Assembly (NCBI GenBank): GCA_017542055.1
Contig: JAFXXW010000010.1
Coordinates: 11,438-75,437, forward strand
From: Kiritimatiellia bacterium
GTDB taxonomy: Bacteria; Verrucomicrobiota; Kiritimatiellia; RFP12; UBA1067
Direction: 5' to 3'
Length of the DNA: 64,000 bases
Under the pieces are notes generated by a model. That model had not been told where the DNA came from, ran no database searches, and saw only the letters and a program-made list of their open reading frames with translations. A program made the position numbers and the translations under genes. Below, one piece after another: positions 60,427 through 64,000 of this stretch; the stretch's first letter is position 1, and every line of letters starts with the position of its first letter.

Positions 60427-61223
60427 CCCCGCATCCTTTCGAAACCCAAGACTCCGCAATCTTTCCCCACCCAATACGAATCGCGGATGGCTTTAAAAAC
60501 GTATTCCTTGGCGCCTTTTACCGCCTCTTTCAGCGTGGCCCCGAGCGTCAGTTCCGCCGCCATCGCCGCCGCAAAGGAGCAGCCCGTACCGTGCGTGGAA
60601 ACGGGGTTTTCCAGTCTCGGCGCGCCGAATTCGCTGAGCTCTTGTCCATCGTACAGCACGTCGATCGATTCCTTCCGGTCCTCCGAGTGCCCGCCCTTCA
60701 CGATCACGCCCACGCCGTACCGGTCGTACAGCGCCCGGGCCAAGAGTCTCGCGTCGTCCTCGCCGACCCTTCCCGCCAGTTCGCGCGCCTCCAGGAGATT
60801 GGGCGTGATCACGGTCGCGAGGGGCAAAAGTTCGCGCTTCAGCACCGCGATCGCCGACTCCTCGATAAGTTTCGCGCCCGAGGTGGCGATCATCACGGGG
60901 TCGATCACCTTCTTGATTTCCGGACGGGTTTTCAGACCCTCCGCCACCGCCTCGATGAGTTCGCCCGTCGCCAGCATTCCCGTCTTCAACGCGCCGATAT
61001 CGTACACGCCCAGCACCGCCTCCATTTGCGCGCGAACGAATTCCGGCGTGACGGGATAGATGGCGCTTACGCCAAAGGGATTTTGGGCCGTCAAAGCCGC
61101 GAAAACCGTACAGCCGTGAACTCCGTACGCATGGAACGCGCGCAAGTCGGCCTGCACCCCGGCATTGCCGCCGGAGTCGCTGCCTGCTATGGTTAGCGCG
61201 CAACTCTTCCCCGCCTTTTCCAT
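60423..61223 (-). CDS. thiD: hydroxymethylpyrimidine/phosphomethylpyrimidine kinase
   Basis: LTIAGSDSGGNAGVQADL, KTGML, and GTGCSFAAA at the C-terminus. Confidence 0.93.
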   Translation of the reverse strand: MEKAGKSCALTIAGSDSGGNAGVQADLRAFHAYGVHGCTVFAALTAQNPFGVSAIYPVTPEFVRAQMEAVLGVYDIGALKTGMLATGELIEAVAEGLKTRPEIKKVIDPVMIATSGAKLIEESAIAVLKRELLPLATVITPNLLEARELAGRVGEDDARLLARALYDRYGVGVIVKGGHSEDRKESIDVLYDGQELSEFGAPRLENPVSTHGTGCSFAAAMAAELTLGATLKEAVKGAKEYVFKAIRDSYWVGKDCGVLGFERMRG

Positions 61224-61234
61224 TATTTTCTAAT

Positions 61235-61263
61235 ATTATATCATATTCCCGCCCAAAAATCAA
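61235..61263 (-). promoter_or_regulatory. promoter cassette P6 (TTGATT-17-TATAAT), ATG 11 nt after -10
   Basis: The minus strand reads ttgatt tttgggcgggaatatga tataat attagaaaata ATG(61223). Confidence 0.68.
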
Positions 61264-61270
61264 GCAGAAT

Positions 61271-61417
61271 CTTGGATTTTCGATTTATGATTTTCGATTT
61301 GCGATTGTCCAATCGACATCTTGGATTTTCGATTTATGATTTTCGATTTGCGATTGCCCAATCGACATCTTGGATTTTCGATTTATGATTTTCGATTTGC
61401 GATTGCCCAATCGACAA
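61271..61417. repeat. 3 x 49-bp tandem repeat, each unit carrying palindrome CGATTG-NN-CAATCG
   Basis: Units at 61271-61319, 61320-61368 and 61369-61417 (cttggattttcgatttatgattttcgatttgcgattgYccaatcgaca). Palindromes at 61302-61315, 61351-61364 and 61400-61413. Confidence 0.92.
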
Positions 61418-61440
61418 TCCCTCAATACAATCCTAAATCC

Positions 61441-61477
61441 AATCGGTAAATCGATAAATCGGTAAATCGGTAAATCC
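61441..61477. repeat. 8-bp microsatellite (AATCGGTA)n
   Basis: aatcggta aatcgata aatcggta aatcggta aatcc; two further units at 61524-61542. Confidence 0.85.
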
Positions 61478-61667
61478 TACCCAAATGCAATCTTAAATCG
61501 TAAATCTAAAATCCAAAATCCCCAATCGGTAAATCGGTAAATGCCGGGGGGTGCCCACCCCCCTCGCCCATACCCCCCTTGAGCTTTTGGCAATTGGCAT
61601 ATTTGCGCTTATTATATAAGCGCTTGCAAATCTGCAAACAAAATCGCAACAATTGATAATGTATAAA

Positions 61668-62456
61668 TCATATGCGGCTTATGACTCGATTAAAAACGTC
61701 GCACCAGGCCGACTTGACGTCGAACTCGATATTGTCGCGCAATATTGGCATGGTATCAAGTTGGTAATCGCTCATCGCGAGTTTTAGCTCCATATTGGCA
61801 ACAAACTCTTTCTGGCTGGGCACGCTTCCGCACGAAGCAAGCATGAATCGTCGCCAACACTGCAACAGCCGGTCGACATCAACCTTGCCGCTATTGAGTG
61901 CGAGATGCATATCGTACAAATCCCGCCCCTTCCTGCGCTGATACATCGCCCGCAGTTTCGATCCTATAAGTTCATCCAGCCAATAGGTGTTTATGCCGCA
62001 TCCTCCCGAAAACCAACTGTTCTGAACCGAAAACGGAACTTCCACATATCCAAGTTCCGCAAAATGCTCGCTGGTGTTGACCTCTAGTTTTATGCGCATG
62101 GACTCCACCGGCATTATTTCGCTCTCGTAACGGAATTTCATCCGAAAGCCAAACCGGCGCTGCTCGAAAGTCTTGCCCGGCAACCACGACAACACTTCAT
62201 CCAATCGTTCCACTATCGGCTTTATCGCTCCCGCCTTGACCTGCACGAGATCAATATCTTCCGAATAGCGAGACTGCGGGCTCAAGTACAATTTATGTAG
62301 CGCCGTTCCGCCCCTGAACGCAAGATTCTCCCGCAGAAAATCGTCGGAAAAGATGGCCACGAGCGCCCGGCAGATAACCAGATCCTGCTCCACGAAACTC
62401 TTGCGCGACCAAGGATGCCCGGCGCTCCACTCGTTTATGCTATTGGCGCTGATCAT
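61668..62456 (-). CDS. abiEii: AbiEii/AbiGii-family nucleotidyltransferase toxin (type IV TA)
   Basis: LAFRGGTALHKLYL...RYSEDIDL, the DUF1814 nucleotidyltransferase signature. ATGA overlap with the upstream antitoxin gene. Confidence 0.88.
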   Translation of the reverse strand: MISANSINEWSAGHPWSRKSFVEQDLVICRALVAIFSDDFLRENLAFRGGTALHKLYLSPQSRYSEDIDLVQVKAGAIKPIVERLDEVLSWLPGKTFEQRRFGFRMKFRYESEIMPVESMRIKLEVNTSEHFAELGYVEVPFSVQNSWFSGGCGINTYWLDELIGSKLRAMYQRRKGRDLYDMHLALNSGKVDVDRLLQCWRRFMLASCGSVPSQKEFVANMELKLAMSDYQLDTMPILRDNIEFDVKSAWCDVFNRVISRI

Positions 62457-63286
62457 ACGTCCTCCACCTCTACTTCCACATTCGGCATTATCTTCCAGCG
62501 GTTGCTGCCGGAATCAAGCGTGTTCGCCGGGGAATGCTGATCAAGCAAGCGAACCGTCATTCGTCGACCGCACCCCTTCAACCCTTCGTACAACATATCG
62601 GCAAGCCGCTTGTCCTCCAGCGGATACTCCAACAAATATCCCAGCCGCTGCGCATCGACGATGCCGATCTTGCGCAACAATTCCGGACTCTGATTGAAAT
62701 CCAATTGCTCCTTCAATTCCGCAATCACCGTGGCAACATTCGAGAGCCCCCCGCAAATCGAATGGAAGCGCACCAGATCGAATGCGGTCAGCGCGGCATT
62801 CGAGAACCTGATCGTGCCGCCCTCGCCATTGCGCACAAATGTGGCGCTGTCGATAATTTCGCTTCGATACGCAAACTCCAAGGCGGCCTTCTTCAGTCTC
62901 GGCAAATGCAGTCTGGCGCCCGATGCCACCACATAGTCGCGCATCGCTCGCTGATGTCCCGCGCCCAAAACCGAGGCGGCGCTCAATAGTCCCACATAAT
63001 AAGGTCGCTTCAAATACTTCATCAGCTCGTCAATATAGAAAAATGGCGGAACCTTGCCATGCAACTTGTACGCCACCGGAATCTTCACGTAAAAACCGTT
63101 GCAGGGCGAAAAAACCTCCCCAGCCAACACCAAGCGCTTGATAGCAGTGGCTATATGTCCATTCTTGGCATCTGGAAATGCCTGCTTCAACTCAATGAGT
63201 GTGGTCATCGACCGACCCTTGAGTTCTTGATCGATAATATAATCTGCTACTGTCATTGCATTTCTGTTGTCATTAATGGTCGCCAC
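62453..63286 (-). CDS. abiEi: AbiEi-family antitoxin / transcriptional regulator (type IV TA)
   Basis: N-terminal wHTH-like region and the conserved RPYYVGLLSAASVLGAGHQ block typical of AbiEi. GTG start at 63286; alternative ATG at 63256. Confidence 0.84.
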   Translation of the reverse strand: MATINDNRNAMTVADYIIDQELKGRSMTTLIELKQAFPDAKNGHIATAIKRLVLAGEVFSPCNGFYVKIPVAYKLHGKVPPFFYIDELMKYLKRPYYVGLLSAASVLGAGHQRAMRDYVVASGARLHLPRLKKAALEFAYRSEIIDSATFVRNGEGGTIRFSNAALTAFDLVRFHSICGGLSNVATVIAELKEQLDFNQSPELLRKIGIVDAQRLGYLLEYPLEDKRLADMLYEGLKGCGRRMTVRLLDQHSPANTLDSGSNRWKIMPNVEVEVEDV

Positions 63287-63314
63287 CTGTCCATTTCTGA
63301 TTAGGTTTGTGCAT

Positions 63315-63344
63315 ATTATATCATATTCCAGCCCGAAAAGTCAA
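63315..63344 (-). promoter_or_regulatory. promoter cassette P7 (TTGACT-18-TATAAT) for abiEi-abiEii
   Basis: The minus strand reads ttgact tttcgggctggaatatga tataat. Confidence 0.62.
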
Positions 63345-63366
63345 GCGTTTTCTTGCCTAATTTGTT

Positions 63367-63518
63367 TCGCAAAGTCCCTGAAAACCTCTCGCAAAGTCCC
63401 CAAGAATGCTCCGCAAAGCCGCCCGCCACGCTCCGCGGTGAGGGACTTTGGTCTCCACGGAGAGGGACTTTACTCTCCGCGGTGAGGGACTTTGGTCTCC
63501 GCGGTGAGCCGCACCTTT
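63367..63518. repeat. seven 22-bp tandem units in two inverted sub-arrays (iteron-like / operator array)
   Basis: TCGCAAAGTCCC cores at 63367 and 63389, with a degenerate copy at 63411. Then CTCCGCGGTGAGGGACTTTGGT-type units at 63431, 63453, 63475 and 63497. AAAGTCCCT and AGGGACTTT are reverse complements. Confidence 0.88.
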
Positions 63519-63561
63519 CTCCGGGCGAAGGCTTGATTCCACCGGAAGATTACACAAGGCT

Positions 63562-63802
63562 GTGCTATCTTGGAGCGTTTTTAGCCAGTTTTGACCTCAA
63601 GATAGCACAAAGCTTGTGCTATCATTGTGCTATCTTCCGAAAAGAGATAATTTAGTTTTTATTAGAGAATTTAATATATTATTATAATATATATCTATCT
63701 CTATTTTCAAGATAGCACAAAATACCTATTCCCGCACACACTGATTTTTTGGCCTTTTTTAGCCCCTATTTGCAGGTGCCTTGTGCTATCTGTGCTATCT
63801 TG
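63562..63802. repeat. seven GTGCTATCTTG-type sites flanking a ~65-bp AT-rich tract (origin/partition/operator-like)
   Basis: Forward sites at 63562, 63616 (partial), 63627, 63783 (partial) and 63792. Reverse sites CAAGATAGCAC at 63598 and 63708. GATAGCAC-aaagctt-GTGCTATC dyad at 63601-63623. AT-rich tract at 63641-63707. Confidence 0.85.
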
Positions 63803-64000
63803 ACTTCAAGCCTTCCACCAGCCACTCGTAATATAGCTGTTTCAGAAGCGAATTTAGCTTTTCGGCATATTTGCGCGCTTCTTCCTCGCTTTCGAACACA
63901 AACATGCGTTCATGCCGGTCATAGAGCGACCTTAGTAGTGTAAGGTGCTCCATCAAAGGCGCATACACTGCCGCGTGAATGTCTTTAGCCACGCGTCCGG
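63795..64000 (-). CDS. hypothetical protein, probably 5'-truncated by window edge
   Basis: Track ORF 63795..63992 (GTG). The frame stays open to nt 64000. No recognisable motif. The 3' end overlaps the last GTGCTATCTTG sites. Confidence 0.35.
   Translation of the reverse strand, partial: GRVAKDIHAAVYAPLMEHLTLLRSLYDRHERMFVFESEEEARKYAEKLNSLLKQLYYEWLVEGLKSR

Follow-up and report, generated by a model that had tools for sequence, protein, structure and literature searches.

Near one edge of a 64-kb stretch of Kiritimatiellia DNA (the window, C16:11438-75437, from a 1.35-Mb assembly of 31 contigs), short repeats in both orientations crowd around a block of A/T-rich DNA, raising the question of what reads them and for what function. 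A first-pass annotation had suggested a DNA-unwinding element accompanied by initiator, partition or repressor sites. The initiator reading has stood up: the cluster lies 3' of a replicative-helicase operon, its grammar of sites is kept with different words in related elements, and it surrounds the most meltable tract of the assembly. The other two find no support, par genes being absent and the promoter-like hexamers in the tract not being conserved in relatives. Very probably, 63562-63802 serves as the origin of replication for a small module driven by a helicase, which comprises a promoter, a 590-aa helicase, orfX and the origin, with arrays of a 22-bp unit as its bounds.

Repeat sites and the A/T-rich tract

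A motif search of the 64-kb window returns GTGCTATC seven times, five copies forward and two reverse, all of them inside 63562-63799 and within 241 bp, against 0.98 ± 1.01 copies and a maximum of four in 100 dinucleotide shuffles of the window. The forward copies start at 63562, 63616, 63627, 63783 and 63792, and the reverse copies occupy 63601-63608 and 63711-63718 (63598 and 63708 when taken as 11-mers); these positions and orientations agree with the first-pass annotation throughout, as does the dyad GATAGCAC-aaagctt-GTGCTATC at 63601-63623. An exact scan of metagenome contigs for this 23-nt dyad gave no match. The longer 11-mer GTGCTATCTTG is exact in four of the seven copies and carries one mismatch in a fifth, the remaining two retaining the 8-bp core only, and the sites can be summarised as 11-bp, element-specific iterons with the consensus yTGTGCTATCTTG. 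Elsewhere in the 1.35-Mb assembly there are 14 further copies of GTGCTATC, scattered singly and nowhere clustered, where a composition-based estimate predicts about 34. The motif is therefore not a dispersed genomic repeat, and this reading, which the annotation had named as the one that would undo its proposal, is ruled out.

The set of iterons distal to the helicase operon begins with iteron 1 (63562-63572, plus strand), an exact GTGCTATCTTG that forms a 12-nt inverted pair with iteron 2 (63598-63608, minus strand, GTGCTATCTTG). Iteron 2 in turn makes an 8-7-8 dyad with iteron 3 (63616-63626, plus strand, GTGCTATCatt, the 8-bp core), the first of a tandem pair spaced 11 bp apart whose second member, iteron 4 (63627-63637, plus strand, GTGCTATCTTc, a single mismatch), adjoins the AT tract. 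On the operon side the tract is adjoined by iteron 5 (63708-63718, minus strand, GTGCTATCTTG), beyond which lie iteron 6 (63783-63793, plus strand, GTGCTATCtgt, the 8-bp core) and iteron 7 (63792-63802, plus strand), an exact GTGCTATCTTG overlapping the stop codon of a 178-aa ORF. The orientations thus run + - + + in the left set and - + + in the right. None of the five SNPs of 63552-63802 falls in an iteron core, an outcome that chance would give at about 0.28 with so few SNPs.

Between the two sets lies the proposed DNA-unwinding element (63641-63707), which had been described as nearly pure A/T and has an A+T content of about 87%. Nearest-neighbour energies give a dG of -61.7 kcal/mol for the 65-mer that starts at 63642, compared with a window mean of -99.3 (sd 5.6), and it is the least stable 65-bp duplex in all 31 contigs (1.35 Mb); the second and third least stable are the corresponding tract of a related element on another contig, C13, and an origin copy on C11. 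The inverted iterons 4 and 5 bracket the tract with 25-nt arms that are 84% complementary, and because of this arrangement 63550-63810, folded as a single strand, is much more structured than its shuffles (z = -7.3). Two phased T6/A6 tracts (ttttttggccttttttagcc) can be read at 63747-63767 on the operon side, where they likely form a static bend. Within the AT tract a promoter-like TTGAAA-18-TATAAT (63681-63710, minus strand), its -35 hexamer fused to iteron 5, may be a chance product of A/T-rich DNA. No DnaA box within one mismatch occurs in 63300-64000, in line with the annotation, and a DnaA-dependent origin is ruled out on this ground; no Rfam family was found in 61200-64000.

The helicase module and its relatives

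The cluster lies just 3' of a two-gene minus-strand operon encoding a 590-aa DUF3987/MCM-like helicase and the 178-aa orfX product. In descending coordinates the minus strand carries the helicase gene (cut by the contig end), orfX, the repeat/AT cluster, an array of 22-bp units with a CTCCGCGG-type core (63367-63518), a host-type promoter, abiEi, abiEii, a block of dispersed host repeat and thiD. The annotation had advised looking at the genes beyond nt 64000, and doing so ties the motif to replication genes: the minus-strand ORF at the window edge, of which 63795-64000 is the 3' part, is complete at 178 aa when read past the window, starting at window-equivalent 64331, where it overlaps the helicase stop by ATGA, and ending with the stop codon at 63795-63797. 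Sites 63783 and 63792 overlap that stop codon, just as the last sites had been said to overlap the 3' end of a partial ORF. The helicase gene itself lies outside the window, at the equivalent of 64328 to about 66100, and the contig end cuts it at 65740. Its missing N-terminus and promoter are supplied by a 98.8% identical ENA contig of 4,617 bp (L032), on which the complete unit consists of the promoter, the 590-aa helicase, orfX, the origin, the 22-bp array, abiEi and abiEii. The only genes of this full 4.6-kb copy are those of helicase, orfX, abiEi and abiEii, and the 3.1-kb copy on C13 holds helicase and orfX only; neither par genes nor recombinase or integrase genes were found in the module copies.

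The whole helicase-origin module measures about 2.7 kb and is framed by the 22-bp repeat arrays, which also coincide with the module boundaries in assembly unitigs. The CTCCGCGG(AG)-type core of the arrays is common to elements with different iterons, and a different, conserved reader is therefore expected for it. The copy number of the 22-bp unit varies at 63431-63457 in several metagenome runs, one unit being omitted at 63431 or 63436. Beyond the array, abiEi (62453-63286, minus strand; PF09407, E 7e-19) and abiEii (61668-62456, minus strand; PF08843, E 4e-33) are cargo of the window's copy, with a host-type promoter of their own before abiEi (63344-63315), and the pair is not present in the type B, C and D copies introduced below. 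Further out, near 61200, the G+C fraction drops from about 0.62 to roughly 0.5. The 64-kb window contains no tRNA gene, which rules out a tRNA-linked island.

The modules on C16, C13 and C11 all adjoin the same dispersed host repeat (61271-61580; C13:29370-29560; C11:1-166), made of a 49-bp CGATTG..CAATCG unit and GGGGTGCCCACCCC palindromes. The repeat occurs elsewhere too (also C1, C8, C9 and C15), with BLAST matches at eight or more other loci of the assembly; modules may insert preferentially beside it, or recombination may use it as a substrate. The element genes have the extended promoter cassette of host genes (63315-63344, 61225-61263 and the helicase promoter of L032), TTGAC/T followed by about 18 nt ending in ..GGAATATGATATAAT, and from this shared cassette it follows that the module is adapted to the host transcription machinery.

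The helicase fragment matches PHROG 3022 ("DNA primase") over positions 342-716 of 788 (E 4e-52), a partial match indicating that the helicase part is present and the primase part absent. Pfam DUF3987 is matched in five of the eight members of the 577-615-aa subfamily (best E 2.5e-14), the helicase of the window's copy being itself without a Pfam match and a helicase profile giving nothing significant against PDB sequences; about 110 homologues of 786-790 aa are annotated as DUF3987 (PF13148). These relatives came from genome and protein searches, and back-translated pattern scans of genome and viral contigs found none. Together with the profile match, the GVGKQ and LVDEVD motifs readable in the sequence as Walker A and B and a predicted C-terminal wHTH place the protein in the DUF3987/SF6 (MCM-related) group. 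DUF3987 proteins have been described as MCM-related (SF6) replicative helicases with a C-terminal wHTH (PMC4889955), and DNA unwinding has been demonstrated for one PriCT-DUF3987 protein (PMC11724360). In the AlphaFold model, which is of medium confidence (pLDDT 71), the N-terminal domain is helical and weakly similar to DnaB-N, the AAA+ core finds its best PDB matches in MCM2-7 and archaeal MCM subunits (Foldseek E 2e-4 to 1e-2), and residues 517-580 form a C-terminal helix-helix-helix-beta-hairpin that matches winged-helix domains. The candidate initiator is accordingly predicted to be a ring helicase that ends in a winged helix.

The helicase is a mosaic, its first 120 aa together with the promoter being about 80% identical between type A and types C/D (P0001 vs P0006/P0007) and the remainder 27-39% identical, which probably explains why contig C16 and the unitigs of metagenome runs X1 and X2 end within the helicase gene. 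Yet another DUF3987-type helicase gene, the third and a different one, is truncated by the end of C15 (C15:68183-69132). The last ~140 nt of that contig recur as their reverse complement at the start of C14 (C14:1-194), which is either an inverted duplicate or a fork in the assembly.

Four further, diverged members of the family, one of them on C13, share the site layout of the window's cluster with different repeat words. The iteron word is GTGCTATCTTG in type A (C16, L032 and L034), GTGTATTGAA in type B (C13 and L037), TCTACAGTAAA in type C (metagenome contig L038), TCTACTGTAAA in type D (metagenome contig L039) and CCAACTTCGCA in a fifth type, E, found in a genome of the same genus (L021). 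The elements on C13 and C16 have helicases that are 34% identical and orfX proteins that are 31% identical, and between types the identity of orfX is 22-29%. When each element's own word, with up to two mismatches, is mapped relative to the AT centre in the helicase sense, the same grammar, > ... < [AT] > > < >, appears in all five types. A forward site sits on the orfX stop codon at -103 to -130 and a reverse site adjoins the AT tract at -28 to -45; on the far side follow a tandem forward pair, 11-12 bp apart, at +36 to +74, a reverse site at +62 to +91, a forward site at +101 to +117, which is missing in L021, and in three of the five types (C13, L038 and L039) another reverse site at +119 to +134. 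An A-tract block can be read at the equivalent position in the type B, C and D origins. Kept positions combined with jointly changed words are the signature of sites read by an element-encoded factor.

More distant helicases without orfX (L022, L023, L025, L026, L029 and L031) have repeat clusters of their own directly after the stop codon, for example GAATCTGTCACC in L029, GGGAATCGAGT in L023 and ACCTTCAA in L031, and an AT-richer patch 100-140 nt past it. Many of the distant relatives without orfX are proteins of 750-840 aa, presumably primase-helicase fusions to judge from their length and the PHROG 3022 profile. At C11:1-576 the type B origin is found in a copy that has no genes, neither orfX nor a helicase following it. 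In this copy a host repeat unit and a GC-rich palindrome are joined by a 22-bp array, the complete set of GTGTATTGAA sites, the AT tract and the A-tract block. Its overall identity to C13:29390-29988 is about 90%, rising to near-identity from the last two 22-bp units through the origin, where none of five differences falls in an iteron. The copy may be a remnant, or else the C13 helicase may serve it as an origin in trans.

Proposed origin function and the probable reader of the iterons

The proposed mechanism would begin with the C-terminal winged-helix domains of a helicase ring recognising the element-specific 11-bp iterons, which form two mixed-orientation sets, one to either side of the 65-bp A/T tract. 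Two helicase assemblies would form, one per side, helped on the operon side by the phased A-tract bend, and would distort and open the A/T tract and load themselves, with priming and synthesis falling to the host, since no primase is encoded by the element. Which protein binds, the melting of the tract and the self-loading of the helicase, as well as firing of the origin in the window's host, are inferred.

The winged helix of the helicase is most likely the reader of the iterons. The sequences of the recognition helix and wing differ among types A, B and C, and the winged helix is nearly identical between types C and D, whose iterons differ at the central base only. The N-terminal 120 aa of the helicase are 80% identical between types A and C although their iterons differ, and the N-terminal domain is thus not the reader; AbiEi and AbiEii are ruled out as readers, as is an AbiEi operator, by the occurrence of the same origin without abiE. 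Sliding-window identity shows the C-terminal domain to be not clearly more variable than the rest of the helicase. The iteron word, which is element-specific, changes along with the helicase, and orfX co-varies as well. Since the two genes always co-vary, the reader is not assignable from sequence alone.

It is conceivable, if unlikely, that the same origin is read instead by the orfX product, acting as a separate initiator or loader that recruits the helicase. All members of the short-helicase subfamily have orfX conserved beside the origin, with its stop codon inside an iteron, and it diverges at the pace of the helicase (between types, 22-29% identity), so that it could carry the specificity; its model is confident (pLDDT 83), indicating a real folded protein, helical with one hairpin. 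That fold, however, is not an HTH, winged helix or ribbon-helix-helix; no PDB structure matches it (best E 0.13), and orfX falls into no Pfam or PHROG family. In relatives that lack orfX, clusters of iterons and an AT patch still follow the helicase gene directly. The helicase also has, by prediction, the canonical winged helix with which SaPI Reps read their iterons.

Regulation offers a distinctly less probable account, in which the TTGAAA-18-TATAAT match (minus strand, 63710-63681) would be a promoter and the repeats its operators, controlling downstream genes such as abiE. The match scores 11 of 12, merges its -35 hexamer with iteron 5 and has a counterpart in type B, where a similar TTGAAA can be read after the equivalent site. 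Against this, the hexamers are missing in the type C, D and E origins and arise easily in A/T-rich DNA, a host-type promoter at 63344-63315 already serves abiEi, the other copies do not have abiE, and the element contains no candidate repressor gene. Seven sites spread over 240 bp around the genome's most meltable DNA resemble an origin rather than an operator. Slightly weaker still is the idea of a centromere or an att-like site with arm-type repeats for a host recombinase: inverted repeats around an AT core do resemble some recombination sites, and a module that has no integrase yet is present or absent between strains (type B in run X20, depth 0-4.7 against 304-357) must have some site that mediates its movement, but the words differ between elements in one genome where a host-encoded reader would need a conserved sequence, the unitig boundaries of the module are the 22-bp arrays outside 63562-63802, and neither par genes nor a recombinase gene is present.

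The carrier module compared with known replicons

With the cluster taken as an origin, the sequencing depth of the module around it bears on how it is carried. In Logan unitigs from seven gut or rumen metagenome runs, the depths of chromosome flank, abiE unit and helicase-origin unit are, in that order, 12.6, 10.5 and 24.0 in X1; 20.1, 16.6 and 34.4 in X2; 9.2, 12.7 and 20.6 in X5; 6.9, 7.0 and 13.2 in X6; 5.6, 8.4 and 9.2 in X9; 13.0, 13.8 and 13.8 in X12, where both units are on one contig; and 348.7, 321.8 and 618.3 in X20. The helicase-origin unit (63369 to about 65783) thus stands at 1.06-2.2 times the chromosome, and at 1.6-2.2 times in six of the seven runs, whereas the adjacent abiE unit (61547-63398), at 0.8-1.5 times, does not share the excess, which is bounded by the 22-bp arrays. 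That the abiE cargo shows no excess argues against in-situ onion-skin replication. Either a low-copy circle or a second insertion fits the excess, which a second chromosomal copy explains equally well; no circular junction was found in the seven runs, in which the Logan unitigs break in the 22-bp arrays, and the depths give no evidence of a firing origin.

The type B module (L001, equal to C13:29169-33278) has an interior depth of 0-4.7 in X20, where its flanks reach 304-357, and is present at about 1x in X1 and X5. Absent or replaced in one run and present in others, it shows that modules differ between strains. The apparent empty-site joints of type B have short sides (22-29 nt) that lie within repeats. 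In a sheep-gut metatranscriptome (X25), a 215-nt contig of depth 3.5 corresponds to 63717-63931, reaching from the 3' end of orfX across iterons 6 and 7 to the margin of the AT tract; DNA carry-over is possible, and this weak trace suggests that the operon transcript probably runs through the proximal iterons to the AT tract.

The carrier may consist of a promoter, the MCM-like helicase, orfX, a SaPI-type origin and directly repeated 22-bp arrays as a frame. Tentatively, it could represent, in gut bacteria of the PVC group, a hitherto undescribed mobile replicon about 2.7 kb long, free of both recombinase and primase, which would exist integrated and as a low-copy circle, move or excise via its flanking arrays, recruit host primase through the DnaB-N-like domain or orfX, and diversify its origin code by swapping helicase segments. 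The roughly twofold depth of the helicase-origin unit, above both chromosome and abiE cargo, the presence or absence of a sister element between strains and the gene-less origin copy on C11 fit such a replicon without proving it. For an intergenic repeat cluster in an uncultured phylum that lacks genetic tools, the analysis provides a concrete function and a testable DNA-protein code. The five natural pairs of word and protein under one grammar are a ready specificity-swap series for studying how MCM-like self-loading helicases read origins, a self-contained 2.7-kb replicon is a possible seed for plasmid vectors in Kiritimatiellia and other PVC bacteria, and the question of how a helicase module persists and spreads without integrase or primase becomes testable.

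The closest comparison is with the Rep-ori replicons of SaPI/PICI elements, for which SaPI1 Rep1, the MCM-like Rep of SaPIbov1/SaPI2 and SaPI5 PriRep5 were considered. Origins of the SaPI class are melted by iteron-bound Rep without ATP and support replication. SaPI origins lie directly after rep and measure about 300 bp; an AT-rich region in the middle divides their 6-12 short iterons, each side having two or more in opposite orientations (PMC9371898; bioRxiv 10.64898/2026.10.17.759575). These iterons are bound by the C-terminal winged helix of Rep, one self-loading hexamer being thought to assemble per side and melt the DNA (PMC9371898; bioRxiv 10.64898/2026.10.17.759575). The window's origin, likewise downstream of an initiator-helicase operon and about 240-300 bp long, has a number of short element-specific iterons within the 6-12 range, in two sets around a central AT tract, with at least two iterons per side and both orientations on each. 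It has neither DnaA box nor separate loader, and its ring AAA+ helicase (SF6/MCM-like in SaPIbov1) is predicted to end in a C-terminal winged helix. The two differ in that the window's iterons are 8-11 bp long rather than 5-7 bp, and in that a 537-bp orfX separates helicase gene and origin here, whereas the SaPI origin follows rep directly. Unlike SaPIs, the module has no primase, integrase, Stl-type repressor or packaging gene, is an approximately 2.7-kb unit framed by 22-bp arrays, and resides in an uncultured gut Kiritimatiellia host for which no helper phage is known. Integrase, master repressor and genes for packaging or capsid redirection are absent from the L032 and C13 copies, and a SaPI/PICI phage satellite as a whole is rejected.

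Phage P4 offers another replication protein that reads origin iterons by a C-terminal winged helix, a domain which is predicted here: its alpha protein uses it to bind octamer repeats (type I iterons), direct and inverted, at ori. Alpha, however, is a primase-helicase fusion of another helicase lineage that needs a second, distant site, crr, and P4 is an 11.6-kb satellite with an integrase. The minimal replicon of pRN1 (orf56/orf904) also places an essential cis element just downstream of the gene for its replication protein (PMC4234260). pRN1 differs in being an archaeal plasmid with a prim-pol/helicase fusion and in having a stem-loop for an origin instead of an AT tract flanked by two sets of iterons.

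Classical iteron plasmids (P1, F, R6K, pSC101 and RK2) share with the window's origin the placing of element-specific repeats by an AT-rich unwinding element, and the neighbouring 22-bp array superficially resembles their iterons. Their repeats, however, are tandem, 17-22 bp long and in one orientation, their Rep is a dimeric non-helicase protein, and they need DnaA boxes and loading of the host DnaB, whereas the window's sites are of mixed orientation, flank the tract and have no DnaA box, and the candidate initiator is a helicase. The mixed orientation of the 11-mers, together with the absence of a DnaA box and of a Rep_3-type gene, rules out a classical iteron plasmid origin of the Rep_3/pi/TrfA type. 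By its architecture, then, the origin is SaPI-type, in an element outside the SaPI/PICI group. It belongs to a known kind of origin, and the module that carries it is the more unusual part.
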